Positions 6,022-42,011 of a DNA stretch of 64,000 bases are shown one piece after another; position 1 is the stretch's first letter; each line of letters starts with the position of its first letter. The notes beneath the pieces were generated by a model. It searched no databases and was not told the origin of the DNA. It worked only from the letters and a program-made list of their open reading frames with translations. The stretch is from an uncultured SAR86 cluster bacterium (GTDB lineage Bacteria; Pseudomonadota; Gammaproteobacteria; Magnimaribacterales; AG-339-G14). The stretch lies in NCBI GenBank assembly GCA_902563105.1, contig CACEVU010000002.1, forward strand, positions 10,592 to 74,591, read 5' to 3'. The position numbers and the translations under genes are program-made.

Positions 6022-7125
6022 TTAAAGTCTAAATCCAATAAGCTCTAATTTAGATTTAGTCTTAAAACTTAAATTTCCAGCCAACTTGTGACTGTTGAAA
6101 CCTGGTCTTTTTAAAGAAGTTCTTAAGTCTTGGAAGGAAAAGTTGCTTTGTTTGGTGCCAAAGAATTTTTTAAAAATTAAATCATCTCTTTTCACATCAT
6201 AGATTTTTAAAAAAAGAGACGGAGCTATTCCAAAAAAATCTATCTCTTTTTCAATGGATTTATCAACTATAAAGTTAATGTTTTCGAACAGATCCAAAGT
6301 TCTTAATTTCTTATCAAAATAAACATTAAAATCCTTCAAAGCTTTCTCTGTAAAATTATTTTCTGCTCCAATTGTTTTACCAGCAATATGAGGTGTTGCT
6401 AAGTATGGCTTCTGCAATTTTGTAAAATCTATTTCATTTTCATTTGGCCAAACATCAAAAGCAAAATTATCTTTATTTTTCGCAAAATAAAACTCATCTG
6501 ATAATACTTCTCCTCGAGAAGTATTAATCAAAAATTGATTATCTTTTAATTGAGAAAAAATATTTTTGTCTAACAAATGATGAGAAGGATATTTACCCTT
6601 TTTAGAATAAGAGCAATGTATTGAAATTACGTCGCAAGCAAGAACCTTTTCAAAAGAAGAAGAATTTTTTGGCTCATAAGGATCAAAAACAAAACTTGGG
6701 TAATTGATCTCATCTAAAATTGATTTTAACTTTTTTCCAATATTTCCATATCCAATGATTCCTATGCTTGATTCGAAAGGTTTTATTTTATTTCCCATCA
6801 ACAAGTTTGAAATTACACTTAACGTATATTCGATAACTGCTAATGAGTTACCGCCCTTCCCTGTGGAGAGTTGAATACTCATTTCTTTGAGAAATTCATG
6901 ATCTATGTGATCTTCTCCTGATGTCAAAGAAGCAATAAACTTTACTTTAGTATTTTCTAGTAGAGCATTATTTATTCTTGTAACTGATCTTAAAAACAGA
7001 GCATCAGAGTTTTTAATATTCTGGTTTGTTATCTCGTTTGCGGGGAGAATGCTTATTTTGTAATCAGTGTTATTACTAAATACTTTATTTAGCTCTTCTA
7101 AGTCTTTGTCTATAACAACATTCAT
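6022..7125 (-). CDS. pdxB: 4-phosphoerythronate dehydrogenase (PLP biosynthesis)
   Basis: LFLRSVTR, GEDHID, GIIGYGNIG, INTSRG, TPHIAG. Likely start MNVVID at 7125 (TAATG coupling); the ORF track starts at 7164. Confidence 0.85.
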   Translation of the reverse strand: MNVVIDKDLEELNKVFSNNTDYKISILPANEITNQNIKNSDALFLRSVTRINNALLENTKVKFIASLTSGEDHIDHEFLKEMSIQLSTGKGGNSLAVIEYTLSVISNLLMGNKIKPFESSIGIIGYGNIGKKLKSILDEINYPSFVFDPYEPKNSSSFEKVLACDVISIHCSYSKKGKYPSHHLLDKNIFSQLKDNQFLINTSRGEVLSDEFYFAKNKDNFAFDVWPNENEIDFTKLQKPYLATPHIAGKTIGAENNFTEKALKDFNVYFDKKLRTLDLFENINFIVDKSIEKEIDFFGIAPSLFLKIYDVKRDDLIFKKFFGTKQSNFSFQDLRTSLKRPGFNSHKLAGNLSFKTKSKLELIGFRL

Positions 7126-7847
7126 TAATTTTTCTTGTTTGGAAGAAATTTGCTTTTTAACCATCCTAAAAAAGAGTTTTCCTTTAAGCTTATTTGGTCA
7201 ATTTTTAAATACAATGCATCTAATTCTTGTGGAGAAGAAAACATATCTTCGCGCGAAATTATTTTTTCATTTTGATCTAACTCTTTGACGATTTTTGCAG
7301 GATTTCCAGCAACAATTACATTTTTAGGCACGTCTTTAACGACTACGGATCCTGCTCCAACAATACTATTTTTACCGATGGTAACTCCTTTATTGACGAT
7401 TGCACTATCGCCTATCCAGACATTATCTTCTAAAACGACCTGTGATGACTTGCCTACTGGAAGAGCTCTGTCATAAATTCCATGCCAATCAGAATCTGAA
7501 ATGTATACTCCATTTGCAAACATACATGAATCTCCTATCTTTATTGAAGTAGCTGCAGATATCCTGACTCCTGGACTAAATAAACAAAATTTTCCAGCTT
7601 GAATTTTTCCATCATGTTTATCAGCATTCCATGTTGTTAAATGAATGTGAGCATCTGGAGAAGTTATGAAGGTAGCAAAATCTCCAACTGAAATATTTTT
7701 TCCGGAAACGTGAAGATATTTAACACCTAAAATAAGAGGACTGATTCCTAAGCTGTCAAATTGGGGTGCAATTATTTTGTTTATATATTGTTGATCAAAC
7801 CACCAATGAATTCTTTTAAGCCAATATGGTCTATTATCTTTTCTAAT
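7125..7847 (-). CDS. Hexapeptide-repeat (left-handed beta-helix) acyltransferase; probable ATT start
   Basis: Frame stays open upstream of ATG 7523 to a stop near 7866. Upstream part reads IRKDNRPYWLKRIHWWFDQ...PQFDSLG...GNFCLFSPGVRISAA-like LbH sequence; VWIG/VTIG/IVGAGSVV repeats downstream; GGGAG SD upstream of ATT 7847. Confidence 0.75.
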   Translation of the reverse strand: MRKDNRPYWLKRIHWWFDQQYINKIIAPQFDSLGISPLILGVKYLHVSGKNISVGDFATFITSPDAHIHLTTWNADKHDGKIQAGKFCLFSPGVRISAATSIKIGDSCMFANGVYISDSDWHGIYDRALPVGKSSQVVLEDNVWIGDSAIVNKGVTIGKNSIVGAGSVVVKDVPKNVIVAGNPAKIVKELDQNEKIISREDMFSSPQELDALYLKIDQISLKENSFLGWLKSKFLPNKKN

Positions 7848-7892
7848 TTTAGTCTCCCGATATTTTTACATCATGTATGATACAGCGATTCT

Positions 7893-9302
7893 ATGAAAGA
7901 AACTCTTGGCACTCCAACTTACGATGCAGATTTGGCTAAAAGATCACCGGCAGAGGAATTTCGAGAATATTTTAAATTAGCAATTCCAATGCTGCTGACT
8001 CAAATAGCGGCGCACGCAACAGGAATAATTTCTGCCTTGATGACAGGAAATTACAATACTGTTGACCAAGCTGCTGTAGCTATTGGAAATATGCTTTTTT
8101 GGCCAGCATATTTCGGCATAGCTGGAGTCTTGTTCATTGTTACTTCTTTTGTAGCGCAGTTTTATGGAGCAAAAAAAAATGAATTAATTGGCCCTCTGGT
8201 GAAGCAATCTTACTGGCTTGCTGTACCTTTAATTCTGTTATTTATAGTCTATATCTTAAATGCAGATAAGCTTCTTTTTTATTTAGGAACTCCTGCCGAT
8301 GTAAAGATTATTACAGAAGATTATCTTTTCGGACTAATGGTAGGTGCTCCAGCAATGTTTCTTTTCCAACCGTTAAGATCTATGTGTGAAGGTATGAAAA
8401 AACCTCTACCCATAACATACATAAATATAGTGATGGTTTTAATTAACGCATCAGTAAATTATATTTTAATTTTTGGAAAATTTGGATTTCCTGAACTTGG
8501 AGGAAAAGGTTGCGGTATAGCTTTTCTGGTTTCTTCCTGGTCATCTTTATTTATCATTTTGAGTTATATTTATTTCTCTAAATATTTTCAAGATATTAAA
8601 TTTTTTAGTGATTTTGAACTTCCTAATAGAAAGCAAATAACAGAAATAATGAAGTTGGGAATACCAATTGGCGGAACTTTATTTATTGAAATCGCGGTAT
8701 TCAGTGGTGCGGGACTTATTCTCAGCAGTTTAGGTGAAAACGTAATTTCAGCTCATGCTATTGCGATGCAAGTCACAACTCTTACTTTTATGCTGCCTCT
8801 TTCAATTGGCTTGGCAGCAAACGTAAGAGTTGGAAATCTCGTTGGCTCTAATTCATTCGACAAAGCAAGATATTCTGCATTTTTTGCTATGTTTTTTGCA
8901 TTATTTTTAGCAATAATTAATACATTTATTCTCATTGAATTCGGTTATTTTTTTGCAAGTTTTTTTAATCCAGATTCCAGTATTGTTTCTTTAGCTTCAT
9001 CTTTATTGGTTATTGCTGCAATCTTTCAAATTGCTGATGGATTAAACTTTTCTGGTGTTGGAGCCTTAAGGGGTTACAAGGACACTCAAATATTATTTCT
9101 CTTTATGTTCATTGCATACTGGTTAATTGGGATGCCAATTGGATATAGCCTATCTATGACAGATCTTTTTTTTGATCCAATGGGTGCACAAGGAATGTGG
9201 ATAGGGCTGACGGTTGGACTATTTTTTTCAGCTGCTTTTGTTATTGCCAGAGTAAATTATACTACTGGGAGAGGTAGAAATAGATTTGTCTTAAATTCTT
9301 GA
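7893..9302 (+). CDS. MATE family efflux transporter (NorM-like)
   Basis: LAIPM, FGKFGFPELGGKGCGIA, LGIPIG, VRVGNLVG, GALRGYKDT; about 12 TM. Confidence 0.9.
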   Translation: MKETLGTPTYDADLAKRSPAEEFREYFKLAIPMLLTQIAAHATGIISALMTGNYNTVDQAAVAIGNMLFWPAYFGIAGVLFIVTSFVAQFYGAKKNELIGPLVKQSYWLAVPLILLFIVYILNADKLLFYLGTPADVKIITEDYLFGLMVGAPAMFLFQPLRSMCEGMKKPLPITYINIVMVLINASVNYILIFGKFGFPELGGKGCGIAFLVSSWSSLFIILSYIYFSKYFQDIKFFSDFELPNRKQITEIMKLGIPIGGTLFIEIAVFSGAGLILSSLGENVISAHAIAMQVTTLTFMLPLSIGLAANVRVGNLVGSNSFDKARYSAFFAMFFALFLAIINTFILIEFGYFFASFFNPDSSIVSLASSLLVIAAIFQIADGLNFSGVGALRGYKDTQILFLFMFIAYWLIGMPIGYSLSMTDLFFDPMGAQGMWIGLTVGLFFSAAFVIARVNYTTGRGRNRFVLNS

Positions 9303-12183: not shown

Positions 12184-13056
12184 TTATGTGGTCATTTCTT
12201 CTAAAATAGATTTTCCTATTTCAGATGGGCTTTTGACAGTTCTCACACCAGCATTTTCAAGGGAATTAAATTTATCTTCTGCAGTTCCCTTACCACCAGA
12301 AATTATTGCGCCTGCATGGCCCATTCTTTTTCCTGGAGGTGCGCTTACTCCTGCAATATAACCAACCACAGGTTTTGAGACATTTTTCTTTATAAATTCA
12401 GCAGCTTCTTCTTCAGCCGATCCTCCTATTTCTCCTACCATGACAATACCCTCAGTTTGAGAGTCCTCCTCAAATAATTTTAAAACATCTATAAAGCTTG
12501 TACCTGGAAGTGGATCTCCACCAATACCTACACAAGTTGATTGTCCAAGGCCGACTTTGGATGTTTGATCAACTGCTTCGTAAGTGAGAGTTCCTGATCT
12601 TGATACTATTCCCACCTTGCCAGGTTTATGGATGAAACCAGGCATAATACCTAGTTTACATTCACCAGGAGTTATTATCCCAGGGCAATTTGGTCCAATA
12701 ATTCTGATGCCCTCCTTATCTGCTAATTCTTTAACTTCTAGCATATCCAAAGTTGGGATCCCTTCAGTTATGCAAATTATCAATTCAATTCCACTTTCTA
12801 TCGCCTCAATTATTGAAGGTTTGCAAAACTTAGCAGGTACAAAAATTATGCTGGCATTAGCCTCAGTGGCTTGTTTAGCCTCAAGGACAGAGTTATAAAC
12901 CGGAAGATCTAAATGAGTTTGGCCTCCTTTTCCAGGAGTGACTCCACCTAAAATATTAGTTCCGTACTCTATAGCTTGACTGCAATGCAAAGTGCCTTGC
13001 GAACCAGTAAACCCCTGACAAATTACTCTAGTCTCTTTATTGATTAAGATGCTCAT
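12184..13056 (-). CDS. sucD: Succinyl-CoA synthetase alpha subunit
   Basis: [31 protein letters not shown]. Confidence 0.98.
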
Positions 13057-14210
13057 ACCGAATTTTTCACTGCTAATTCAGCAGCTTCTGATAGCTCATC
13101 CGCAGAAATAATATTTAAATCACTTTCAGAAAGAATTTGTTTTGCCTCTTCTGAATTATTGCCTTTCAGTCTAACAATGACTGGAATATCCACGCCTACT
13201 TCCGAGACTGCTGAAACTATCCCCAAGGCAACAACATCGCATCTTACAATACCTCCAAAAATATTTATCAAGATTGACTTAACTTTTTCATCAGAAAGAA
13301 TTATCTTAAACGCTTCAGCTACTCGTTCTTTATCTACGGTACCTCCGACATCTAAAAAATTAGCCGGAAATCCTCCAGAAAGTTTAATTATGTCCATTGT
13401 TGCCATTGCAAGACCAGCTCCATTTACCATACACCCGATATTTCCATCCAAAGCTACGTAGTTAAGATCCCACTTTGCTGCTTCAATTTCTTTTTGATTT
13501 TCTTGTGAAGGATCTCGAAGTTTCAGAAGATCTTCTTGTCTAAATAAGGCATTTTCATCGATATTAATCTTTGCATCCAAACACTTTAGGGAGTCATTTT
13601 GATCAACAACAAGAGGGTTGATTTCTATCAACGAAAGGTCTTTTTCAAAAAATAAATTTATCAACCCTCTAACTATCTTTTTAAATTCAATGATTTGATC
13701 TGAAGATAATTTAAGGCCATTAGCCAAAGGCATAATATCAAAATTATTTTTTTTGTTTTTATTGATTTTGATCTTATAAATCTTTTCTGGACTATCTGCT
13801 GCAACTTTTTCTATATCCATTCCACCTTCAGGCGATGCCATTACAACAAGAGACTGAGTGCTTCTATCTATTACAGCTCCTAGATAAAATTCTTTTTTTA
13901 TAGAAGTACTCTCTGCAATCATAATTGCAGAAACAGGTTTCCCTTCTTCGCCCGTCTGATTATTTATGAATTTTTTACTGAGCCAATCTTTAGCAAAATT
14001 TTCAATTTCTTGAAGATCTTTAGTGATTTTCACTCCACCAACTTTTCCTCGTCCTCCAGCATGAACTTGAACCTTTACAACGAACTCGGGGCCTTCTAAT
14101 TTTGTTATTAAGCTGTGTACCTCTTCATGAGAAAATACAACCACGTATTTAGGCGTGGGTAAGCCAAAATTTTCTAGTAATTTTCTGGATTGATATTCGT
14201 GTAAGTTCAA
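13053..14210 (-). CDS. sucC: Succinyl-CoA synthetase beta subunit
   Basis: MNLHEYQ (TTG start), [29 protein letters not shown]. Confidence 0.98.
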
Positions 14211-14220
14211 AGCTTTAATA

Positions 14221-14961
14221 TTATAAAGCTCTTTTCACCAACATTTTTTTTATTTCGCCAATTGCTTTAGTAGGATTAAGTCCTTTAGGACATACAGATA
14301 CACAATTCATTATTCCATGACATCTGAAAACACTAAACGCATCTTCGAGTTGTTCTAATCTTTCTTCGGTTGCCGTATCTCTGCTATCGGCAATGAACCT
14401 ATAAGCTTGTAATAAGGCTGCAGGACCAAGAAATTTATCAGGATTCCACCAGAAAGATGGGCAAGCAGTGGAACAACAGCCGCACATTATACATTCGTAA
14501 AGACCATCTAGTTTTTCCCTTTCTTGCACCGTTTGAGGAATAGCTTCTCTGGTGTCAACTTTTTTATCAGTTATTAAGTAAGGCTTTACTTTTTTATATT
14601 GATCAACAAACTGCTTCATATCTACTATCAAATCTTTAATAACGGGTAAGCCAGGTAAAGGTCTTATTGATAGTTTGTTGGATCTCACAGCATCAGATAA
14701 AGGAGTAATACAACCTAAACCATTTTTTCCATTTATGTTTAATCCATCTGAACCGCAAACTCCTTCTCTGCAGGACCTTCTAAAGGAAATTGAAGGATCT
14801 TTTTCTTTAGCAAGCATTAAAACATCAAGAACCATTAAATCCTTTTCTAGGGGGATATCTATATCAAAGTCCTGCATATAAGGCTTTTCTTTTTTCAAAG
14901 GGTCGTAGCGATAAATACTCAATTTGAGAGTTTTTATTTCGTTTGCTGCTATAGAATTCAT
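14221..14961 (-). CDS. sdhB: Succinate dehydrogenase iron-sulfur subunit
   Basis: RRSCREGVCGSD, CIMCGCCSTACPSFWWN, CHGIMNCVSVCPKG. Confidence 0.98.
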   Translation of the reverse strand: MNSIAANEIKTLKLSIYRYDPLKKEKPYMQDFDIDIPLEKDLMVLDVLMLAKEKDPSISFRRSCREGVCGSDGLNINGKNGLGCITPLSDAVRSNKLSIRPLPGLPVIKDLIVDMKQFVDQYKKVKPYLITDKKVDTREAIPQTVQEREKLDGLYECIMCGCCSTACPSFWWNPDKFLGPAALLQAYRFIADSRDTATEERLEQLEDAFSVFRCHGIMNCVSVCPKGLNPTKAIGEIKKMLVKRAL

Positions 14962-16766
14962 TAGTAAGTTCTTACTATGGGTTGAAAAGCTTGAACTTGC
15001 TTAGGTCTAAAGTTTACTTCTCTTTTGGAAACTTGCTTAGAATCAGCATAATAAATTGAATGTTTAAGCCAATTATCATCATCTCTTTCAGGATAGTCTT
15101 CTCTTGAATGAGCTCCTCTACTTTCTTTCCTTTCATTTGCACTAATCGCCGTAGCTTCAGCCACCTCAATCAAGTTCAATAATTCTAAGGCTTCAACTCT
15201 TGCTGTGTTGAACTGAGATGACTTATCAGCTAAATGAATGTTTTGGGACTTTTCTCTCAGATTAGATACCTCTTTAATGCCGTTGACCATTAATTCTTCC
15301 GTTCTAAAAACCCCAAAGTTCATTTGCATTGTTTTTTGGAGATCTTTTTTGACCTCAACGAAGTTTTCACCAGATTGACTTACGTTTACTCGATTTAAGT
15401 TTCTTAAAGCGTAATCTATGTCTCCAGAAGACGGGTTATCTAATTCAATGCCCGATTTAAAGGTTTCTTCAATATGGAGACCTGCTGATCTGCCAAAAAC
15501 AATTAAGTCAAGAAGTGAATTTCCTCCAAGTCTATTTCCTCCATGGACAGAAACACAAGCAGCCTCTCCGGCGGCATAAAGGCCATCAATAATTTTATCT
15601 GTACCATCAGGGTTCTGGGATATCACTTGTCCATGAACGTTAGTGGGTATTCCTCCCATAGCATAGTGACATGTAGGAACCACTGGGATTGGGTGTTCGG
15701 CTGGATCAACGTGTGCGAATCTTTTGGAAAGTTCTGTTACTCCAGGAAGTCTTTTGTGAACAATTTCGGGTCCTAAGTGGTCAAGTTTAAGAAAGACATG
15801 ATCTGCATCTGGTCCGCAACCTCTTCCTTCTAAAATCTCAGTAAACATTGATCTAGCGACTACGTCTCTGCTGGCGAGATCCTTATAATTTGGCGCATAT
15901 CTTTCCATGAACCTCTCACCATCTTTGTTAATTAAGTAGCCGCCTTCTCCTCTACAACCTTCAGTAACTAAGGTTCCATGACCATGAATTCCAGTAGGAT
16001 GAAATTGCCACATTTCCATATCTTGTACAGGGTAACCTGCTCTCAAGGCCATACCTGTTCCATCGCCAGTATTAATCAAAGCATTTGATGTGGTCTGGTA
16101 AATACGTCCCGCGCCTCCAGTAGCTAGTACAGTTGCCTTAGATTTAAGAAAGAAAGGCTCTCCAGATTCTATTTCAAAAGCAATAACTCCAACTACTTGG
16201 TCATTTTGATTTTTGACAAGATCTACTGCAAACCACTCAGAAAGAAAGTTTGTTCCTGCTTTAACATTGGCCTGAAATAAAGTATGCAAAAGTGCGTGAC
16301 CTGTTCTATCAGCTGCAGCGCAGGTCCTTTCAGCTTGTCCGCCCTTGCCATAATCTTTTGATTGACCTCCAAAAGCTCTTTGGTAAATCTTTCCTTCATC
16401 TGTTCTTGAAAATGGCAAGCCCATGTTCTCGAGTTCGAAAATGGCTTCTGGCCCTTCTTTACACATATATTCAATAGAATCTTGGTCGCCGATAAAATCT
16501 GAGCCTTTAACGGTGTCATACATATGCCATCTCCAATCATCGTCTGGATCAGCACTTTGAATTGAACAAGTAATACCCCCTTGGGCAGAAACGGTATGAG
16601 ACCTTGTTGGAAAAACTTTTGAAACAACAGCGGTATTTAATCCAGATTTAGCTAATTGGAGGGAAGCCATCATTCCTGAACCTCCGCCGCCAACAATAAT
16701 ACCGTCGAACTCCTTCACTGGAAGTGAAGCTGCATCTAATAAAGTACCTTTTCCATTCATTGCCAT
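14961..16766 (-). CDS. sdhA: Succinate dehydrogenase flavoprotein subunit
   Basis: [35 protein letters not shown]. Confidence 0.98.
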
Positions 16767-16768
16767 AA

Positions 16769-17134
16769 CTAGTTACCTAAAATATAAAAACTACAAATAA
16801 TTAACCCAGAAGCTTGAAACCAACTAAAGCCGATAACCAATGGTCTCAGGACTTTCGCGGATACACCTATCTGCGCATGGGTAAGGTAATCTGTTGCAAT
16901 GTTCCATATTCCCTGTATTGAATGATAAGCAATTGAAAACGCAACTATTACCGTAAATATTTCTATAAGGAGAATATCAAAAAAGCTTGTTAGTTGTTCA
17001 TAATTAAAGCTTCTATTCACTAACCAATAGAAGGTTATAACTGAAAAATATACTGCTTGAATGACGGCAGTTACTCTGACAAAGACATAATCAAAAACTC
17101 CTGTTTTTTTTAATTTATAAAGCTTAGTTACCAT
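16769..17134 (-). CDS. sdhD: Succinate dehydrogenase membrane anchor
   Basis: [13 protein letters not shown]...GIW...TDY; lies between sdhC and sdhA. Confidence 0.88.
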
Positions 17135-17496
17135 GTCAGCATCAAAAAAATAATAAGAAAAAAGGCAGTTGCAAAGAAAGTAGAGATAGCTGAAAGTCTT
17201 CCAGCACGAAGAGTTTCCCAGTATCCAAAATCCATTACAAGATGTCTCAAACCTGAAACAAAATGATAAAAAATTGCAGTTATAAAAATTGTGAATATGA
17301 TCTTAAAAAAAGGATTTTCGTAAATAATAAGAAAAAGGCTGTAATTATTTTTCGAGCTAAGCGCAAAGACAAGTAATGCCATCATTGGAAGGGATAAAAC
17401 AAAAATTGCTACTGCAGAAAGTCTATGCAAAATTGATGAAACACCTGCAGCAGGTAATGCAATCTTAAACAAGTTTAAATATCTTGGTGAATTCAT
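17128..17496 (-). CDS. sdhC: Succinate dehydrogenase cytochrome b556 subunit
   Basis: SILHRLS, YHFVSGLRHLVMD. Confidence 0.93.
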   Translation of the reverse strand: MNSPRYLNLFKIALPAAGVSSILHRLSAVAIFVLSLPMMALLVFALSSKNNYSLFLIIYENPFFKIIFTIFITAIFYHFVSGLRHLVMDFGYWETLRAGRLSAISTFFATAFFLIIFLMLTW

Positions 17497-24514: not shown

Positions 24515-25243
24515 TTATTTAGCTGACAGATCTTTCGCTAAGTTTTCTTCAAAATTAAAACTTTCTCCACAACCACATTCAGCTGACACATTAGGATTAA
24601 TAAAAACCAACTCCTGATTGAGGTTTTTTTTGATGAAATCAAGTTTTGTGCCTTTGAGAAAGATAAAGCTTTTGTCTTGAATAGAAAGATTTATACCATT
24701 GATTAGACCATTAAAATCGTTTTTATCAATTTCTGATATCAAATCTAGTTTATATGCAAAACCTGAGCATCCTGAGTCTACCAACGAAATTTTTATGCCT
24801 TTTGAATTTCCTATTTCAATCATTGAAGAAAGATGATTGGCAGCATTATTTGAAATATCAAAATCCTTAGAAGAAATATCTTTATCTGAAGCTTTTGAGT
24901 TTTTTGGGTGATTTTCTGAAACCATATTTATTGTATATTTAGGTATTTCAATTTCTAAGTCAGAATCTTTAACAATAGTCTGACAACTAAGCCTAGATCT
25001 GGATTCTAATCCCCATGCTTTGTCCAATAAATCTTCCTCATCATCTGTAGATTCGTTTAAGGAATCAAATCCTTCAGTGAAAATGACATGACATGTCGTA
25101 CAAGCACACGAAAGTTCGCAGGCATGTTCAATATCTATATCCTGATTAAGTAGGTTTTCACAAACAGACATGCCAGAGACTGCCTCAAACTCAGCACCAT
25201 CTGGACATAAATCAACATGTGGTTTTACCTTTATTTTTGGCAT
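24515..25243 (-). CDS. fdx: ISC [2Fe-2S] ferredoxin fused to a C-terminal IscA/HesB domain
   Basis: N-half HACELSCACTTCH...LDKAWGLE..SRLSCQ; C-half SGCSG...NPN..ECGCGESF; one continuous frame. Confidence 0.9.
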   Translation of the reverse strand: MPKIKVKPHVDLCPDGAEFEAVSGMSVCENLLNQDIDIEHACELSCACTTCHVIFTEGFDSLNESTDDEEDLLDKAWGLESRSRLSCQTIVKDSDLEIEIPKYTINMVSENHPKNSKASDKDISSKDFDISNNAANHLSSMIEIGNSKGIKISLVDSGCSGFAYKLDLISEIDKNDFNGLINGINLSIQDKSFIFLKGTKLDFIKKNLNQELVFINPNVSAECGCGESFNFEENLAKDLSAK

Positions 25244-25692: not shown

Positions 25693-27117
25693 TTATGCCC
25701 AAACTATTTTATCTAAATCTATTCCGTCTTGATACATTTCCCACAAAGGAGAAATCTCTCTCAGTCTATTTACTGAATCCTTTACTAAATTTACAGTTTC
25801 TCTAACTTCTTCTTCGCGTGTAAATCTTCCGAATGAAAATCTTATCGAGCTGTGAGCCAGTTCGTCTTTTCTACCGAGAGCCCTCAAGACATATGAAGGT
25901 TCAAGACTTGCAGAAGTGCAAGCAGAACCAGATGAAACTGCGATGTTCTTCAAAGCCATAATCAAGGACTCTCCTTCAACAAAGTTAAATGACATATTAA
26001 ATATGCCTGGAAAAGAATTATCTTGGGCCCCGTTTACGTAAACTTCTTCCATATCCTTTAAGCCGTTCCAAAGAATATCTCTATACTTTGAAAGGTTAGA
26101 GTAATCTTCGTCCATTTTTTCTTTAGCGAGCTTAAAAGCCTCACCCATCCCAACAATTTGATGTGTAGGAAGCGTACCTGCTCTAATGCCTCTTTCTTGT
26201 CCGCCTCCGTGGAACAACGGCTGAAGTCTAACTCTGGGTTTTCTTCTTATATAAAGCGCGCCTATACCCTTTGGCCCATATATTTTATGAGCTGAAAATG
26301 ACATTAAATCTACATCAAGATCCGTTAAGTCGATTTGAATTTTACCTGCACTTTGTGCAGCATCAACGTGAAAAATAATTCCATTTTCTCTTGTAATCTT
26401 TCCTATTGAACGGATATCGTTAATAACTCCGATCTCGTTGTTTATATGCATAAGTGATACAAGGACAGTGTCTTCGCGAATCGCTTCTTGAACAGCCTCT
26501 GGCGTTATCAAGCCATTTTTGTTTGGTTCTAGATAAGTAACCTCGTAAGATTCATTTTCTAGTTGACGGCAAACGTCTAAAACAGCCTTGTGTTCTATTT
26601 TAGAAGTAATGATATGTTTTCCTTTTTTTGAATAGAAATATGAAGCGCCTTTGATTGCTAAATTATCTGATTCTGTAGCTCCAGAAGTCCAGATGATCTC
26701 TCTCGGATCACAATTTAGTAAGTTAGAAACATTTGAACGTGCTTCTTCGACAAGTTCTTCTGCTTTCCAGCCATAGATATGAGATCTGGATCCAGAATTT
26801 CCGAAAGCACCTTCAAATGATAAACACTCTTTCATTTTATCAATTACCCTTTCGTCCACTGGAGTTGTAGATGCATAATCAAAATAAGTTGTTTTTCTGG
26901 GTAGAATAGATTTTATATTTGAGCTCTCAGGGCTTCCTTCAGAAAAATTAGATTTAAGATCATTTAAAATAATGTCTCTTTTCAAAAGAGCTTTATCAAG
27001 GGTCTTTTCCCCAGTGGATTTTCTTAGATCGAAGCCAAGTTTGTCCCTTAAATGTAAAGGTACAGCTAATTTCACCCACCAAACGTTGTTTCTTTTAAAT
27101 AAATATTTCTTGTCCAT
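25693..27117 (-). CDS. iscS: Cysteine desulfurase IscS with an extra N-terminal DUF6538/integrase-arm-like domain
   Basis: [34 protein letters not shown]-terminus; about 70 extra N-terminal residues from ATG 27117 (ORF track uses TTG 27138). Confidence 0.93.
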
Positions 27118-27126
27118 TTTCTTTAA

Positions 27127-27160
27127 ATTGTACCACAATTTACTGATAAATTAAGGTACA
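27127..27160 (-). promoter_or_regulatory. Extended -10 promoter (TGnTACAAT) overlapped by a 32-bp inverted repeat; candidate isc operator
   Basis: Plus strand 27129-27160: tgtacc-ac-aattta-ctga-taaatt-aa-ggtaca. Minus strand TG-G-TACAAT ends 9 nt before the iscS ATG. Confidence 0.55.
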
Positions 27161-27357: not shown

Positions 27358-28746
27358 TCAAGCCCAGATTTCGTCATCTGTAGGTACTTTCTTATCAGAA
27401 ATAACCTTGCCAATTCTAGATACATTCATAAGATGCTTATAATCCAAGTTCTCAGAAATCGAGTTTCCTCCCCAAGAACCACAACCAAGTGTAGTTGTTG
27501 GAGCAAAGCCATTTGTAAGAGAGCCGCCTGCTGAAGTAGAACTTGGTTGGTTTATAACAAGTCGACTAATAGGTAATTCCAACCCTGCTTTTTGAATATT
27601 TTGATCATTGTTAGAGTGTAATGCTGCAGAATGACCCGCTCCTTCTACAAGAAGGTTTGCTTTAGCCATTTTAACTGCGTCCTCAAAAGTAGAGTAAGGA
27701 ACAATTGCTATCACAGGACAAAGCTTTTCTTTTGCAAGAACATCTTCAGTACCAGATCCGTCGGCTGGTAAAAGTATTAGTCTTGATGAATCAGGAATTT
27801 CAATGCCTGCTAATTCACCTACGTAACTAGCAGATTTACCAACGATATCTTTGTTCAAGTTCCCGTCCAGAAAAACAACTTCACGTAGCTTTTGTATTTT
27901 ATCTTGATCATTTGTGAACCAGACTTTCCCAGTGTTAGTAAATAATTCAATTGTTTCGTCAAAGTTTTCTTCTGGAGCAAATACAAATTGTTCATGAGAA
28001 CAAATAATTCCATGATCGAATGATGCTCCGTCGACTATTTTTTCAATAGCTTCTTTTAAATCTATGTTTCTATCTATTATTACTGGAACATTTCCTGCCC
28101 CAACTCCAAAAGAGGGTTTACCTGAAGAGTATGCGGACTTAACCATAGCCCCTCCTCCGGTTGCAACAACTACATCTGCTGATTGCATAAGTTCTTGAGT
28201 CTTTTCAACGGATCCATTTGTAACAACTTGAATAAGATCATCTGGACCGTTATGAGATTTAACAATTTTCATAAATTCTTTTGTCAAATATTCAGCGCAG
28301 TTTTGAGCCTTAGGATGAGATGCAAAAATTACTGCATTGCCAGTCTTTAGAGCAAACATGCCATTACACATTGGAGTAACAATAGGATTTGTTACAGGAG
28401 TTACTGCAGCAACTACTCCCATGGGCTTAGCAACAAAAACAAGATTACTGTCCCTATCTTCACCGATTACTCCTCGAGACTTCTTACCTTTTAAATTATT
28501 CCAAATGACACGTGCTTTACTTTTGTTTTTCAAGATTTTGTCTTCATAGGAACCCATTTCTGTCTCATCAACAGCCATTCTCGAAAGTGGTTCAGCATTA
28601 TCGTAAACAAATTTGCCAATATCGCGAACAACCGCATCTACTTTTTCTTGTGTGAAAGATTCAAAATTTTTTTGAGCTATACGTGCTTTTCTTACTAGCT
28701 CTTGAACTGATACATCTATAGAGTCAGATGACTTTACCTTGGTCAT
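27358..28746 (-). CDS. CoA-acylating aldehyde dehydrogenase, succinyl-CoA reductase/succinate-semialdehyde dehydrogenase (Clostridium kluyveri-type)-like
   Basis: TPVTNPIVTPMCN, VATGG, AYSSGKP, DHGIICSHEQ (catalytic Cys), KEKLCPV, EGAGH, PTTTLGCGSWG.NSISENL, VP..DEIW C-terminus; stand-alone with no ADH domain; strong AAGGAG SD. Confidence 0.85.
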   Translation of the reverse strand: MTKVKSSDSIDVSVQELVRKARIAQKNFESFTQEKVDAVVRDIGKFVYDNAEPLSRMAVDETEMGSYEDKILKNKSKARVIWNNLKGKKSRGVIGEDRDSNLVFVAKPMGVVAAVTPVTNPIVTPMCNGMFALKTGNAVIFASHPKAQNCAEYLTKEFMKIVKSHNGPDDLIQVVTNGSVEKTQELMQSADVVVATGGGAMVKSAYSSGKPSFGVGAGNVPVIIDRNIDLKEAIEKIVDGASFDHGIICSHEQFVFAPEENFDETIELFTNTGKVWFTNDQDKIQKLREVVFLDGNLNKDIVGKSASYVGELAGIEIPDSSRLILLPADGSGTEDVLAKEKLCPVIAIVPYSTFEDAVKMAKANLLVEGAGHSAALHSNNDQNIQKAGLELPISRLVINQPSSTSAGGSLTNGFAPTTTLGCGSWGGNSISENLDYKHLMNVSRIGKVISDKKVPTDDEIWA

Positions 28747-28866
28747 TGTTTTGCTCCTTTTTTAATAAGCTTAACTTCTAATTATTATATTCTAGACCAA
28801 GTTATCTATACTTTTAATATTTTTTATTTAGATAATTTATAAATAATGACAGAATCGAAATGCGAT

Positions 28867-30537
28867 TTATAATTTAGAACTAATTCTTTTTAAATCTTTA
28901 TTTAAGATTTTATCGTTTTCGCTATAATCAACAGGACAATCTATTAAATGGACTCCCGAAGTATCCAAGCATTTTTCTAAAGTATTTTTAAGTTGTTTTG
29001 AATCATCTATTCGATAACCTTTTGCGCCATATGCATCTGCATACTTAACAAAATCTGGATTTTCAAAACTCAATCCAAAATCAGAAAATTTCATATTTTC
29101 CTGTTTCCACTTTACCATCCCATAAGCTTTATCATTTAAGATTATGACTGTGAGATTGACGCCCAATCTTACTGCTGTTTCCAACTCTTGACTGTTCATC
29201 ATAAAACCTCCATCTCCGCAGACAGATATTACTTTTTTATCTGGGTAAATCATTGCTGCTGTTATAGCTGACGGGAGACCAGCTCCCATACTTGCAAGAG
29301 CATTATCTAAAATAACGGTATTTTGTTCTAATGCTGGATAACCTCTCGCAAACCAAAGTTTATAAACTCCATTATCCAAAGTAATTATTCCATCATCTGG
29401 CATGACATTTCTTATTTGGCGAACCAAATAAGGTGGGAAAATGGGAAATCTGTCATCTTCTCTTATTTTTTCAGAATGTTCCAGGTGGGCCTGTCTTGTA
29501 AGAAGCATTTTTGAAAAATCCCAATGAGCCTGAACTTTAATTTTTTCTTTTATCTGCCAAATAGCGTTTGCTATGTCGCCGGTGACCATCAATTGAGGAA
29601 AGTAAATTCCGTTAACATTAGCAGCTATATGATCAATATGAATTACCTTTGTCCCTTCTTTTTCGCTCATTATAAAAGGTGGTTTTTCAAAGTTTTCTTG
29701 ACCAACTGTGACTATCTGATCTGATTCTTCTAGAGCTCTATGAACAAAGTCTCCATTTGTTAGAGCAGCACATCCAAGAAAGTTTTGGTGTCTCTCATTG
29801 AGGGCTCCCTTTCCAAGTTGAGTAGTTATAAATGGAATTTTTGTCTTTTCGACAAACTCTAAAAGCATTTTGCTCGTGCTTGTTCTATTTGCCCCACCGC
29901 CCAAGACTAAAATGGGTCTCTTAGCTTTTTCTATTAAATCTACAGCTTGATTAATTGATTTTTCATCAGGTATTGGTCTACGGATGATGCTTTTCAATAA
30001 AGGTTTTCTTCTTGTTACCTCACTTGCAATATCTTCAGGAAGTTCAAGATGCACAGCTCCTGGTCTCTCTTCTTCTGCTAGTCTGAAGGCTTCCCTTACT
30101 TCAGGTGCAATCATATTTGCAGAAGATATTTGATGAGTATATTTTGTAATTGGCTGCATGAGATCTACAACATCTAAAATTTGAAATTTTCCTTGTTTTG
30201 TATTTTTTATGGGTTTCTGTCCTGTAATCATGACCAAAGGCATTCCGCCTAATTGAGCATAAGCTGCAGAAGTAACCAAATTTGTTGCCCCCGGACCGAG
30301 GGTGGTTAAGCATACGCCAGCTTTTCCTGTAAGTCTTCCGTAAGTAGCTGCCATAAATCCAGCTCCTTGCTCATGCCTTGTAAGAATTAATTTAATTTTA
30401 TTTGACTTGCAAAGACATTCAAGAAAATCGAGATTCTCCTCGCCAGGAAGTCCAAAAACAAATTCGACTCCTTCTTCTTCCAGGCATTTAATAAAAAGTT
30501 CGGCTCCTTTAATTTTTTTACTATCAAAAATACTCAT
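28867..30537 (-). CDS. ThDP-dependent acetolactate-synthase-like enzyme (possible 2-oxoacid decarboxylase)
   Basis: FGLPGEEN, TRHEQGAGF, TLGPGATN, GDGGFMMNSQELETA...LND; no ilvH or ilvC nearby; starts immediately after the purC stop. Confidence 0.85.
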   Translation of the reverse strand: MSIFDSKKIKGAELFIKCLEEEGVEFVFGLPGEENLDFLECLCKSNKIKLILTRHEQGAGFMAATYGRLTGKAGVCLTTLGPGATNLVTSAAYAQLGGMPLVMITGQKPIKNTKQGKFQILDVVDLMQPITKYTHQISSANMIAPEVREAFRLAEEERPGAVHLELPEDIASEVTRRKPLLKSIIRRPIPDEKSINQAVDLIEKAKRPILVLGGGANRTSTSKMLLEFVEKTKIPFITTQLGKGALNERHQNFLGCAALTNGDFVHRALEESDQIVTVGQENFEKPPFIMSEKEGTKVIHIDHIAANVNGIYFPQLMVTGDIANAIWQIKEKIKVQAHWDFSKMLLTRQAHLEHSEKIREDDRFPIFPPYLVRQIRNVMPDDGIITLDNGVYKLWFARGYPALEQNTVILDNALASMGAGLPSAITAAMIYPDKKVISVCGDGGFMMNSQELETAVRLGVNLTVIILNDKAYGMVKWKQENMKFSDFGLSFENPDFVKYADAYGAKGYRIDDSKQLKNTLEKCLDTSGVHLIDCPVDYSENDKILNKDLKRISSKL

Positions 30538-31257
30538 TTAAGGCTTATTTAGATTGATACCGATTCTGTAAGCAATTTCTTGGTAAGACTTCACTACGTC
30601 ACCCAAACCTAGTCTAAATCTGTCCTTATCAAGCTTTTCTTTAGTTTCTTTATCCCATACCCTGCAACCATCGGGTGTAAACTCATCACCTAAAAAAATC
30701 TTATTATTATTTTTTCCAAATTCTAATTTGAAATCTACTAAGATTAAATCGGCTGAGTCGAATAATTCTAGAAGATGTTTGTTAATTTCTAAAGTAAGAC
30801 CTTCAAGGATTTTTATGTCCTCTCTATTTGCCCAACCAAAAGCTACTATGTGATTATCATTGATCATAGGATCGCCTAAATCATCATCTTTGTAGAAAAA
30901 TTCAAATATAGGATTTTCAAATTTCATACCTTCTTCAAGGCCTAATCTTTTGCAAATACTTCCCGCTGCATAATTTCTTACAACACATTCAATGGGAAAC
31001 ATATCTAAAGATAATACTAAACTCTCTCTATCGCTTAATTCATCTAGTAGATGGCAAGCAATGCCTTTTGAATCTAAATATTTCATTATGAAATTGTTAA
31101 AGCGATTATTTACAGTTCCTTTTCCAGCCAATTGTTCGATTTTTTTTCCGTCAAAAGCAGACGTATCGTCTGTAAAATCCATGATTAACTTAGAATCATC
31201 AGAGGTTCTGTAAAGCTCTTTCGCTTTACCTTTTGTTAACAGATCTTTTTTTTCCAT
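30538..31257 (-). CDS. purC: SAICAR synthase
   Basis: GKAK, FTDDTSAFDG, ECVVRN, LVDFKLEFG, DKDRFR. Confidence 0.97.
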   Translation of the reverse strand: MEKKDLLTKGKAKELYRTSDDSKLIMDFTDDTSAFDGKKIEQLAGKGTVNNRFNNFIMKYLDSKGIACHLLDELSDRESLVLSLDMFPIECVVRNYAAGSICKRLGLEEGMKFENPIFEFFYKDDDLGDPMINDNHIVAFGWANREDIKILEGLTLEINKHLLELFDSADLILVDFKLEFGKNNNKIFLGDEFTPDGCRVWDKETKEKLDKDRFRLGLGDVVKSYQEIAYRIGINLNKP

Positions 31258-31263
31258 TTTTAC

Positions 31264-32235
31264 CTAAGATAGTGATTGGTTTATTTGAGAAATTATTTCC
31301 TCAGATAATTCTATATTTTCTTCGTCTAAATTTGTGGAAATTAAACACTCTTTTGAGCTAAGTTCTTCGACTAAAATTTCAACGCTTGTGATATCCGGCC
31401 TTCGATCAAGCAATGACCTCTTTAGAGAGTATTCTAGAAAAAATTTTCCACCGTTTCTATCTTCATCTAGTATTTTGTATCCTGCAATCAGCAAAGATCT
31501 TCTAAGAGCAGCCCAAGCTCTAGCAAAGTTAATTTTTAGTTTTATTTTAGACATTCCTGAAAATTCGTCTGAAATAACCTCTGTCTTATTGCTTGCATTT
31601 AAGTTAAGCGCTACTAGAGAAGTTCCCGTAGAAGGACCTGCTTCTGATAAGTAGTTATAAAATTTATTTATTAAGTTATCCAATTGACTTTCTTTTGAAG
31701 AAACAATGACCCAATTATTGTTTACTCTTTTTAATTGAGAAACAAAAATTTCTGAACTTGATTGTTGTAATCCCCTTTCAATTTTAAAAACAAATTTTGA
31801 GTCAGAGTTGTTTAGTTCATAAATTTTAGAATTTATGGTCCCTTGACTAACATCATATGTACCTAAATCAATTTCTTCATTGTTCTCAATAAACTGAATT
31901 GTCATTGGCCAAGCGGCACTCGGCTCTAGCCCTAAGTAAACCCACCTAATTTCGCCAAGTTTATGGAGTCTAATTTCACTGGAAGATAACGCAGAAAAAA
32001 GTTGTTTAGGTCTTGCAGTTTCAAAATCTTCATCATTTTCAAAAATTTCCACTTCGCCGGGAATTGGATACTTATCTAAAATAAATGAGGAATCTTCAAT
32101 TACAGATCCATCAAGTAAAGCCAGAGAATTTTCTGAAGTATTGATAACTCTTTTTTCTTTGAAATCTGTTTCCTCTTTAATAGTTAAAGTACAGGACAAA
32201 AAAGTCAATGAAATCAAAAGTACTGAAAGTTTCAT
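31264..32235 (-). CDS. bamC: Outer membrane assembly lipoprotein BamC (NlpB/DapX)
   Basis: Lipobox FLSC, RW, FARAW motifs; dapA-bamC-purC synteny. Confidence 0.75.
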   Translation of the reverse strand: MKLSVLLISLTFLSCTLTIKEETDFKEKRVINTSENSLALLDGSVIEDSSFILDKYPIPGEVEIFENDEDFETARPKQLFSALSSSEIRLHKLGEIRWVYLGLEPSAAWPMTIQFIENNEEIDLGTYDVSQGTINSKIYELNNSDSKFVFKIERGLQQSSSEIFVSQLKRVNNNWVIVSSKESQLDNLINKFYNYLSEAGPSTGTSLVALNLNASNKTEVISDEFSGMSKIKLKINFARAWAALRRSLLIAGYKILDEDRNGGKFFLEYSLKRSLLDRRPDITSVEILVEELSSKECLISTNLDEENIELSEEIISQINQSLS

Positions 32236-32238
32236 TAT

Positions 32239-33129
32239 TTATAATAACTTAAGCTCGTTTAGGTTTTGCTCTAAATCTTTTTTAAAGATGTCATTCAATT
32301 CAATCAAAGGCAATCTGATACCTTTATCAATAAACCCCATTTTATATAGACACCATTTTACAGGAATTGGATTTGATTCACAGAATAGGTTTTTATTGAG
32401 TTGTTGCAAGCTCTCGTCCAGTTTTTTTGCTTTAGTAAAATCTGAATTTACCAAATCACAGATTTCTGAGACGATATTTGGAACTAGATTAGATGTAACA
32501 GAAATGGTCCCATGCCCTCCTTTTTGGAGAAATTCCAAAGAGGAAAAATCATCCCCAGAATAAAGGAGAAAGTTACCTGAATTTATTTCTTCCGCACATA
32601 AATTTAATACCTCAGAATGATTTTTCATATCTCCAGTGGCATCTTTTATTCCTATGATATTTTTATGACAAGATAGCTTGAAAACTGTTTCTGGTTCAAT
32701 AAAACTTGCTGTCCTAGAAGGGACATTATATAAAATTTGGGGCAAATCAATTTCATCAGCAATTTTTATGTGATGTTTATAAATTCCTTCTTGAGGAGGC
32801 TTGTTGTAATAAGGAGATACCAATAATGCAGCATCTGCACCAGACTCCTTAGCTCCCTTTGTTAAATGGAGAGCCTCATCAGTTGAATTAGCTCCAGTTC
32901 CAGCAATGATTGGAATTCTTCCTGAGGCTGTTTTAACGAAAAATTCTATTAATTTGATGTGATCTTTAAAATCAATAGTTGCTGACTCTCCTGTTGTACC
33001 GACTGCAACCAAAGCAGAAATCCCAGAATCAATTTGAAAATTAATAAGTTTTTCAAGAGCGCTATAGTCAAGTTCTCCATTTTCTTTCATTGGAGTAACT
33101 AAAGCGGTAATTGAGCCTTTTATAGACAT
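32239..33129 (-). CDS. dapA: 4-hydroxy-tetrahydrodipicolinate synthase
   Basis: GTTGES, PYYNKP, LYNVPSRT, GIKDATG, ESNPIPVK. Confidence 0.97.
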   Translation of the reverse strand: MSIKGSITALVTPMKENGELDYSALEKLINFQIDSGISALVAVGTTGESATIDFKDHIKLIEFFVKTASGRIPIIAGTGANSTDEALHLTKGAKESGADAALLVSPYYNKPPQEGIYKHHIKIADEIDLPQILYNVPSRTASFIEPETVFKLSCHKNIIGIKDATGDMKNHSEVLNLCAEEINSGNFLLYSGDDFSSLEFLQKGGHGTISVTSNLVPNIVSEICDLVNSDFTKAKKLDESLQQLNKNLFCESNPIPVKWCLYKMGFIDKGIRLPLIELNDIFKKDLEQNLNELKLL

Positions 33130-41204: not shown

Positions 41205-41601
41205 TTTGTTTTACCAGCATTTTATTTCTTAATTTTTCTGGAAGAGCGATAGGTTTTTTACTTTTTAAATCAACACACCCGCACAACACACTAGCATCAC
41301 ACATTACCTCAGAGTTTGAAATAACTTTTTGATGAAAACTAAAGCTAGCGTTTTTAACTTCTTTTAAGGAAGATTCTATTTGAACTATTTGATCTAACAA
41401 AACAGGCTTTTTGTAATGAACATTTAATTTGTTTACTATAAAAACAATTCCTTTTTTTAGTAAATCATTTTGCACATAACCACATTCTCTGAGAAATTCT
41501 GTTCTTCCTCTCTCAAAGTACTTAAGATAATTTGCATAAAAGACGACACCTTGAGCATCAGTATCTTCATAATAAATTCTTACTTCTATCGAATCTGACA
41601 T
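41194..41601 (-). CDS. ybgC: Tol-pal-associated acyl-CoA thioesterase
   Basis: RIYYEDTDAQGVVFYANYLKYFERGRTE. Confidence 0.95.
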   Translation of the reverse strand: MSDSIEVRIYYEDTDAQGVVFYANYLKYFERGRTEFLRECGYVQNDLLKKGIVFIVNKLNVHYKKPVLLDQIVQIESSLKEVKNASFSFHQKVISNSEVMCDASVLCGCVDLKSKKPIALPEKLRNKMLVKQNAG

Positions 41602-42011
41602 TAGAGATGAGTTTCAATATCTTCTTTATAAAGAGATTTCAGTAATACAATAAAGCTTTCTAAAGAAAAATCACATGTATTATTAAAATCTAATGGTAAA
41701 TTTTTGTTTATGGTGTGAATGGGAATTCTTACTTTAATAGGCCTATGATTGAACTTATAAATTAATGCAGGATAACTGTCTTCAGGAGTAGCTTTAATTA
41801 CTTGATCCCACCAACTTTCTAGGGGTTCTGCGCCTTGTCCATACCTTTTACATTCTAAAAACCATTTCCCCAAAATTAAGTCAGGAAGATGCTTTTCTCT
41901 TGTTTGTTCTAGTATTCTTTTTAAAGGTTTTTTTAGTCCCAAAGACTCATTGATAATATTAGCGATTTCTCTTTCAAAAGATGCTCCTTTGTTTCTAGAA
42001 TTGGTCATCAA
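41601..42011 (-). CDS. PD-(D/E)XK nuclease, Hjc/phage-type Holliday junction resolvase-like
   Basis: NSRNKGASFERE...PD...LECKRY...WWDQ...PALIYK; no RuvC (RNase H fold) motifs; overlaps both neighbours. Confidence 0.75.
   Translation of the reverse strand: MMTNSRNKGASFEREIANIINESLGLKKPLKRILEQTREKHLPDLILGKWFLECKRYGQGAEPLESWWDQVIKATPEDSYPALIYKFNHRPIKVRIPIHTINKNLPLDFNNTCDFSLESFIVLLKSLYKEDIETHL

Follow-up and report, generated by a model that had tools for sequence, protein, structure and literature searches.

Genes between purC and iscS

We analysed a 64,000-nt stretch of DNA from an uncultured SAR86 cluster bacterium (hereafter, the window, meaning this stretch at its full length), focusing on two neighbouring genes on its minus strand. 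One encodes a thiamine diphosphate (ThDP) enzyme (P0001, 556 aa; positions 28867-30537), recognized by its open reading frame (ORF), three ThDP Pfam domains and a match to NF006187, and the other a SucD-like, CoA-acylating aldehyde dehydrogenase (ALDH; P0002, 462 aa; 27358-28746), recognized by its ORF and by its best solved relative, PDB 8cei. In related genomes, the same slot between purC and iscS holds a three-gene module built around a ferredoxin-dependent 2-oxoacid oxidoreductase (KOR), and this module is never found together with the pair. The pair, in our judgement, probably constitutes a two-step route, free of both iron–sulfur (Fe-S) clusters and ferredoxin, for the 2-oxoglutarate to succinyl-CoA step of the citric acid cycle, for which we infer the substrates, the direction of the SucD-like enzyme and the nicotinamide cofactor.

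Along the minus strand, the genes follow each other in the order dapA, a lipoprotein gene, purC, the ThDP gene, the P0002 gene, iscS, iscU, fdx-iscA, ndk and ispG. The upstream edge of the slot is purC (30538-31257, minus strand; TIGR00081, 229.6 bits versus a cut-off of 189.9), whose TAA stop codon directly abuts the ATG of the ThDP gene, and the downstream edge is iscS (25693-27138, minus strand; TIGR02006, 679.5 bits, with the match running from ORF residue 83). By their ORF coordinates, the two genes of the pair lie 120 nt apart (28747-28866, minus strand), and a scan of this spacer for promoters and terminators returned sites no more numerous than in shuffled sequence. Hence, the first-pass annotation of this DNA was correct in placing a ThDP gene directly upstream of a stand-alone acylating ALDH gene.

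In all four KOR-encoding genomes in which the slot was examined (G011, G019 and G021, representing three genera of the window's family, and G037 from the sister family), purC and iscS enclose korB, korA and the gene for a 676-aa flavoprotein, all on the opposite strand. The KorA of G011 scores 583.1 bits with TIGR03710 against a cut-off of 482.75, while the beta subunit has the PF02775 domain but reaches only 186 bits with TIGR02177, the cut-off of which is 261.9. The flavoprotein is GltD-like and combines Fer4_20, pyridine-nucleotide oxidoreductase and 2x[4Fe-4S] domains. Apart from a flavoprotein paralogue at 29% identity, no counterpart of this cassette was found in the window's genome. As the sister family has the same arrangement of KOR genes, KOR is the older occupant of the slot and the ThDP/SucD pair its replacement. 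In the eight carriers of the pair examined in this respect (the window's genome G000, and G014, G022, G024, G439, G455, G457 and G459), the ThDP gene comes immediately after purC. The SucD-like gene follows the ThDP gene in 9 of the 12 carriers and lies elsewhere in the genome in the other three (G014, G457 and G459), which retain both genes of the pair and have no KOR.

The window's family comprises 50 genomes from four genera, all of which were searched for the SucD-like gene, the ThDP orthologue and KorA. The SucD-like gene is present in 12 of them (86-100% identity), and the ThDP orthologue (81-100% identity to P0001) occurs in the same 12 genomes and in no others. KorA was detected in 34 genomes, 29 of which exceed the TIGR03710 cut-off, the remaining five being partial or split. 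Not a single genome holds both the pair and KorA, and the four with neither are 60, 70, 76 and 78% complete; each of the 29 genomes that are at least 80% complete holds exactly one of the two (8 the pair and 21 KOR). When Fisher's exact test is applied to the raw counts, p = 1.5e-8, which overstates the association because it ignores the kinship of the genomes. However, the pair state and the KOR state are each found in all four genera. The anti-correlation with korAB that had been proposed as a check at first pass is thus complete across the family.

Among the KOR genomes, korA is spread over two frames in G004 (G004:C2:185987-187742) and contains a stop codon in G438 (G438:C30:2144-3830), neither genome having the pair; these two cases may represent either KOR decay or assembly error.

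The ThDP enzyme and its homologues

The translation of P0001 contains the motifs GLPGEEN, RHEQ and GDGG...ND that had been read from it at first pass, and its gene is flanked by purC and the SucD-like gene, with neither IlvH nor IlvC encoded alongside, again as annotated. The protein matches the NCBIfam model NF006187 (PRK08322, 'acetolactate synthase large subunit') over its full length with 851.9 bits versus a cut-off of 509, but this label is a name and not a tested function. Its nearest solved relatives are PDB 13bb and then the pyruvate-using AlsS enzymes, and the clusters returned by a protein atlas search are all auto-named acetolactate synthase.

Taken at face value, these names, which the homologues also bear in their sources, would make P0001 an acetolactate synthase or another carboligase whose adjacency to an ALDH gene is incidental. 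We find this extremely unlikely, because the protein falls below the cut-offs of the curated models for the large subunit of biosynthetic acetohydroxyacid synthase (TIGR00118, 384.6 versus 538.35) and for catabolic AlsS (NF006378, 461.7 versus 510; TIGR02418, 418.5 versus 551.1), because a complete canonical ilvI-ilvH-ilvC cluster, with ilvI scoring 798.6 bits, resides elsewhere in the window's genome (G000:C2:246271-250911), and because an ALDH gene is the usual downstream neighbour of its homologues.

These homologues are widespread, occurring in Sphingomonadales, Alteromonas, Paraglaciecola, Pseudomonas putida, Burkholderia, Woeseiaceae, Verrucomicrobiota and others. We inspected 80 loci of P0001 homologues from other bacteria (59-73% identity), counting their neighbours by tblastn. 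In 42 of the 80 loci, an ALDH21-like gene lies at most 400 nt downstream on the same strand (46 when gaps below 800 nt are counted), and a more distant ALDH lies within 400 nt in 9 further loci, bringing the total to 51; a SucD-like neighbour was found in none. The common partner scores 773 bits with a Burkholderia structure and 578 bits with moss ALDH21 (PDB 5mz5), and ALDH21 is described in a review as an NADP-dependent succinic semialdehyde dehydrogenase (PMC7823795). The second ALDH type seen beside some of the ThDP homologues was considered as a candidate for the succinic semialdehyde dehydrogenase of cyanobacteria and rejected, being a distant relative of ALDH21. In addition, two 50%-cluster representatives, P0242 (1016 aa) and P0256 (1019 aa), join a PRK08322-type ThDP enzyme to an ALDH and are either putative fusions or merges made in gene calling. 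The downstream ALDHs, together with these putative fusions, point to an aldehyde as the product of the ThDP family. Since two unrelated dehydrogenases that act on succinic semialdehyde, namely the ALDH21 and SucD types, appear as its partners, we take the aldehyde to be succinic semialdehyde and the acid to be 2-oxoglutarate, and this is the main reason for assigning these substrates.

In a tree of 93 ThDP sequences (FastTree, rooted on the genome's own IlvI), the 11 sequences of the window's family form a single clade (support 0.984), with a Woeseiaceae sequence as its sister, followed by a copy from the family genome G456. The family clade nests among sequences partnered by ALDH21, which fits a switch of partner. 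G456 itself is a KOR-positive genome (64% complete), in which a ThDP gene with 71% identity is followed by an ALDH21-like gene at a different genomic place (L133 4275-7398, on G456:C1). This insertion separates two genes that neighbour each other in the window, with the insertion point corresponding to approximately 41583-41607, and its ALDH21-like protein is 75% identical to a sphingomonad one.

For the 2-oxoglutarate decarboxylase of Microcystis (KGD), a strict specificity for 2-oxoglutarate was reported, and docking into a model placed K386 and K471 against the substrate (PMC10418658). P0001 has K393, K478, Y472, M417 and Y538 at a constant offset of +7 from the published residues of MaKGD, as well as E56, G441-D442-G443 and D469, corresponding to the activating Glu and the ThDP motif GDG-X27-(N)D. 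In Bacillus subtilis AlsS, the columns of P0001 Lys393 and Lys478 are occupied by Ala and Gln. The best of 150 representatives by these residues, P0262 (16 of 17), was evaluated as a candidate cyanobacterial KGD and discarded, since it is a methanogen-type protein, 42% identical to P0001. Proteins of this P0262 type, named 'acetolactate synthase' in Methanoperedens, Methanolobus and Methanosarcinaceae, match 16 of the 17 KGD residues at a constant offset and, judging by these residues, may be 2-oxoglutarate decarboxylases.

The SucD-like aldehyde dehydrogenase

The translation of P0002 contains VYDNAE, TNPIVTPMCN, GIICSHEQ, EGAGH, LPISRLVINQP and VPTDDEIW, and its best solved relative is the succinyl-CoA reductase SucD of Clostridium kluyveri (CkSucD; 8cei), with 532.4 bits and an E-value of 9e-159 over residues 10-461, as compared to at most 316 bits for the next-best solved chains, which are of the AdhE, EutE and PduP types. 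The likeness to the C. kluyveri enzyme noticed at first pass is therefore well founded. In CkSucD, Cys242 and His364/Thr365 were described as catalytic, while Lys70 and Ser243 hold the distal carboxylate (PMC10249356). The CkSucD residues K66, K70, T112, C242, S243 and H364 correspond to K73, K77, T119, C249, S250 and H372 of P0002, with T365 replaced by S373. According to the same report, the positions of CkSucD K70, T395 and S243 align with Leu158, Leu483 and Val331 in PduP, an enzyme that accepts a neutral acyl group (PMC10249356). By similarity and by these residues, P0002 is predicted to belong to the C. kluyveri-type class of succinyl-CoA reductases.

An anionic pocket of this kind would suit a sulfonate too, and P0002 does score 395.8 bits with NF047625, the model of the acylating sulfoacetaldehyde dehydrogenase SauS. 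The pair might accordingly be envisaged as converting sulfopyruvate via sulfoacetaldehyde to sulfoacetyl-CoA, from which a homologue of succinate-CoA ligase would generate ATP and sulfoacetate. We deem such a pathway very unlikely: the score misses the SauS cut-off of 600, succinate-CoA-ligase genes were seen only in the sdh operon (no genome search for a second copy was made), and neither the exclusion of KOR nor the shared slot would be explained by it.

Equally, the two genes might not form a linear pathway at all, with SucD working reductively as in Clostridium and the ThDP enzyme either supplying or ligating the semialdehyde, so that the product would be, for example, 4-hydroxybutyrate. 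The characterised SucD enzymes are reported to be reductive with NADPH (PMC10249356), the window's genome has one gene of the Fe-ADH family (G000:C4:30421-30918), and the two genes are unlinked in 3 of the 12 carriers, all of which would be in keeping with such an arrangement. However, it leaves the loss of KOR whenever the pair is present without explanation, no GabT was found above cut-off, and the unlinked SucD-like copies that we examined have no 4-hydroxybutyrate genes beside them, making it, in our opinion, highly improbable.

Among 399 other genomes of the same class, no homologue of P0002 exceeds 41% identity. Between the family's four genera, the SucD-like protein is 86-90% identical, as compared to 63-87% for the flanking purC and 50-77% for dapA; this high identity reflects either strong constraint or the spread of the cassette among the genera after their divergence.

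Other 2-oxoacid routes in the genome and the order

The window's genome (1.20 Mb in 8 contigs, 93.9% complete) yielded no match to sucA or to an E2 acyltransferase; for aceE, there was only one match of 30.6 bits (cut-off 859.9), the matches to lipoamide dehydrogenase (E3), searched for in this genome only, did not exceed 55.4 bits (cut-off 408.8), and KorA and POR_N were unmatched. The search for sucA was extended to 41 genomes of the order, of which 25 belong to the window's family (f1), 6 to f2 and 10 to f3 and f4. The gene is absent from all 25 genomes of the window's family and all 6 of f2, and it is present in all 10 of f3 and f4. The distribution of E2 mirrors this split, with none in the 25 family genomes, except that it occurs in two of the six f2 genomes. 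With no E2 in the 25 family genomes searched and neither E3 above cut-off nor aceE in the window's genome, a pyruvate, 2-oxoglutarate or branched-chain dehydrogenase complex appears to be lacking altogether.

The gene order in the window tells a similar story. The sdhCDAB block (14221-17496, minus strand; sdhC 17128-17496, sdhD 16769-17134, sdhA 14961-16766 and sdhB 14221-14961) runs into the minus-strand succinate-CoA ligase genes sucC (13053-14210; NF001913, 530.8 bits) and sucD (12184-13056; NF004230, 471.5 bits) with a gap of 10 nt between sdhB and sucC and with neither sucA nor sucB in between, in agreement with the first-pass description of an sdh-suc operon devoid of sucAB. As sdhA and sdhB are situated directly upstream of sucA in all six sucA loci examined in the sister families, the sdh-sucCD junction of the window has the appearance of a clean sucAB loss. 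This loss is not, however, what sets the pair carriers apart. The pair had initially been regarded as a substitute for the 2-oxoglutarate dehydrogenase complex, a view that we had to revise, because the complex is found in none of the 25 family genomes searched, and what the pair displaced is the ferredoxin-dependent KOR with its Fe-S flavoprotein. For the same reason, the suggested test for anti-correlation with sucA was uninformative, the gene being absent from the family genomes with and without the pair alike.

Since no dehydrogenase complex was found, the relatives yielded no 2-oxoacid oxidiser other than KOR. This makes it conceivable that the pair oxidises pyruvate via acetaldehyde to acetyl-CoA, thereby replacing the pyruvate activity of a broad-specificity KOR, the more so as the solved relatives of the ThDP enzyme next after 13bb use pyruvate, and P0002 reaches 446 bits with the model of the AdhE aldehyde-dehydrogenase half and 377 bits with that of EutE. 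Yet the last score (376.7 bits with TIGR02518, acetylating acetaldehyde dehydrogenase) misses the cut-off of 620.1, and among solved structures SucD (532 bits) is a far nearer match to P0002 than AdhE and the acetaldehyde dehydrogenases are (at most 316 bits). Moreover, P0002 has retained the Lys and Ser by which a distal carboxylate is bound, for most of the CoA esters tested the relative catalytic efficiency of CkSucD was reported to be below 2% (PMC10249356), and the ThDP family is usually partnered by a succinic semialdehyde dehydrogenase of the ALDH21 type. We therefore regard the oxidation of pyruvate by the pair as unlikely.

Icd-like and ICL-like genes are present, which suggests that 2-oxoglutarate is made and that a glyoxylate bypass also exists. 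The source of acetyl-CoA in the pair carriers is not accounted for by any gene examined. Besides P0002, the genome encodes another ALDH (G000:C1:310591-311952), for which no equivalog model reached its cut-off and which has enoyl-CoA hydratase and carboxyltransferase genes as its neighbours.

A proposed route from 2-oxoglutarate to succinyl-CoA

In the route that we favour, the ThDP enzyme would irreversibly decarboxylate 2-oxoglutarate to succinic semialdehyde and CO2. The SucD-like enzyme, working in the oxidative direction, would then oxidise the semialdehyde via a thiohemiacetal and a thioester on Cys249 and pass the succinyl group to CoA, producing succinyl-CoA and NAD(P)H. Finally, SucCD, the genes of which are in the window, would convert succinyl-CoA to succinate with formation of a nucleoside triphosphate, and succinate dehydrogenase (SDH) would continue the cycle. 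The net reaction of the pair would read 2-oxoglutarate + CoA + NAD(P)+ -> succinyl-CoA + CO2 + NAD(P)H, and KorAB together with the GltD-like flavoprotein would achieve the same, provided that the flavoprotein hands its electrons to NAD(P)+. Because the decarboxylation would be irreversible, the replaced step must run oxidatively. In a Pfam domain search, neither protein of the pair contained an Fe-S domain. This is essentially the sequence of reactions put forward at first pass, and comparative genomics now supports it by way of the exclusion, the slot and the partner, whereas its substrates are still inferred.

Several observations weigh against this reading. The mutual exclusion could partly stem from competition of the two cassettes for one insertion slot and not from shared function, although we give this less weight, since three carriers hold their SucD-like gene elsewhere in the genome and nevertheless lack KOR. 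KorA passes only the broad subfamily model of 2-oxoacid:acceptor oxidoreductases (TIGR03710), so that, as far as its sequence tells, its substrate could be pyruvate or several 2-oxoacids, and as the family yielded no pyruvate dehydrogenase either, the function that was displaced cannot be narrowed down to 2-oxoglutarate. The presence of a glyoxylate-shunt enzyme implies that the 2-oxoglutarate step may not be essential. As for the enzymes themselves, P0002 is only ~52% identical to CkSucD (234 of 452 aligned columns, counted from the alignment), SucD homologues that act on sulfoacetaldehyde are known (PMC10413351), and P0001 matches 11 of the 17 published residues of Microcystis KGD, by numbering offset and not by alignment. 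Furthermore, 25 of the 80 homologue loci have no ALDH nearby. One 62% identical ThDP homologue without an adjoining ALDH is carried by pSTY, the conjugative plasmid of Pseudomonas sp. VLB120 (6995-8638), where it is flanked by a gene for an FAD-dependent monooxygenase and by srp solvent-efflux genes. This context suggests that more than one function may exist within the ThDP family, and the plasmid contexts as a whole are mixed (VLB120, and unrelated genes in Tistrella) and fix no substrate.

A further-reaching suggestion, which we make tentatively and consider rather doubtful, is that the family keeps, at one chromosomal slot, two modules that can stand in for each other in a single citric acid cycle step, the Fe-S-rich KorAB with its ferredoxin reductase and the Fe-S-free ThDP enzyme with its acylating dehydrogenase, and that selection through the supply of iron or the exposure to oxygen in surface seawater maintains this polymorphism.

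Four routes for the metabolism of 2-oxoglutarate are known, namely the lipoate-dependent dehydrogenase complex, the ferredoxin-dependent oxidoreductase, the shunt formed by a decarboxylase and a non-acylating dehydrogenase, and the GABA shunt. The third of these bypasses succinyl-CoA and forfeits the phosphorylation step. Should our reading be true, a decarboxylase combined with a CoA-acylating dehydrogenase would constitute a fifth route, which would dispense with lipoate, ferredoxin and Fe-S clusters while delivering succinyl-CoA, NAD(P)H and ATP all the same, and it would be a previously undescribed natural one, residing in a streamlined marine lineage with small genomes. It would also provide a candidate function for a widespread family that is auto-named 'acetolactate synthase large subunit', and, for synthetic biology, a two-gene, oxygen-tolerant substitute for the dehydrogenase complex.

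Relation to known systems

A close analogy is with the OgdA/SsaD shunt of cyanobacteria, in which an acetolactate-synthase-like ThDP enzyme makes succinic semialdehyde from 2-oxoglutarate and a dehydrogenase removes the aldehyde, as is predicted for the SAR86 pair, in an organism without the dehydrogenase complex. The cyanobacterial shunt, as described, consists of the decarboxylase and a non-acylating dehydrogenase (PMC7133116; PMC5160925), the latter yielding succinate and one NADPH and no nucleotide triphosphate (PMC7133116). In contrast, the second enzyme encoded in the window is predicted to be CoA-acylating, whereby both succinyl-CoA and the phosphorylation step of SucCD would be kept.

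The replaced system has precedents as well. For two of the four families of SAR86, KOR was reported as part of 'an alternative TCA cycle' (PMC11582366), and a KOR-based citric acid cycle was reported for Mycobacterium tuberculosis (PMC2773412). The order to which the window belongs resembles the SAR86 account in having four families, in the two of these that have KOR, in genome sizes and in a marine source. The pair would share with the KOR cycle the step and its product, succinyl-CoA, and it occupies the same chromosomal slot as KOR does in the relatives. The two differ in that KOR depends on Fe-S clusters and a low-potential acceptor, here served by the 676-aa flavoprotein with its Fer4_20 and dicluster domains, whereas the pair would pass through a free aldehyde.

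With respect to the clostridial SucD enzymes of C. kluyveri and C. difficile (PDB 8cei-8cek), P0002 retains the Cys and His used in catalysis as well as the Lys and Ser that hold the carboxylate. Between the two clostridial enzymes that have been characterised, the identity is reported to be 58% (PMC10249356). Clostridial SucD serves anaerobic fermentation in the reductive direction, while P0002 is proposed to be oxidative, in an aerobe-type genome with SDH.

The ThDP and ALDH21-like pairs of Sphingomonadales, Alteromonas, Burkholderia and other bacteria resemble the SAR86 pair in having a ThDP enzyme of the same family and a dehydrogenase gene directly downstream, but their partner is non-acylating and related to moss ALDH21. 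Some of the hosts, such as Pseudomonas putida and Burkholderia, are organisms with the dehydrogenase complex, so that the ThDP enzyme and ALDH21 would form a side shunt there and not the sole route.

In the sulfoacetaldehyde system SauS/SauCD, too, an acylating ALDH from this broad clade is coupled to a CoA ligase of the ADP-forming kind, whereby ATP is gained (PMC10413351); unlike SauS, P0002 misses the cut-off for that enzyme and stands in a genomic context tied to the loss of KOR.

Engineered 1,4-butanediol strains use both enzyme types, but there both make the aldehyde. In the literature, we found no natural route that leads to succinyl-CoA by means of a 2-oxoglutarate decarboxylase and an acylating succinic semialdehyde dehydrogenase. 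None of the words 'acetolactate', 'semialdehyde' and 'succinyl' occurs in the main text of the above-cited paper on SAR86 (PMC11582366), while its supplementary tables of gene content lay outside the search and may bear on this point.

Neighbouring genes and occurrence

Upstream of the slot, dapA (32239-33129, minus strand) and purC enclose the gene of an NlpB/DapX-like lipoprotein (31264-32235, minus strand). Downstream, the isc cluster includes a fused fdx-iscA ORF (24515-25243, minus strand), in which an ISC-type 2Fe-2S ferredoxin (residues 2-111) is joined to an IscA-like domain (130-230), and no ORF of this cluster in the window is of a size sufficient for hscA or hscB. In G019, fdx and iscA are two ORFs, in reversed order relative to the fused ORF of the window. 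The iscS ORF opens at a TTG, 82 codons upstream of the start of its family match; given this distance, the true start probably lies further downstream, in which case the SucD-like gene would be followed by ~450 nt of non-coding sequence.

Short assembled contigs with 0-3 differences from both genes of the pair were present in four RNA-library runs from four studies, one of them covering the purC/ThDP junction; as such libraries can hold DNA, this hints only weakly at transcription. Among the metagenome protein clusters listed, the best 120 consist of near-identical genes, and parts of the window were present in marine or seawater runs of 11 studies.

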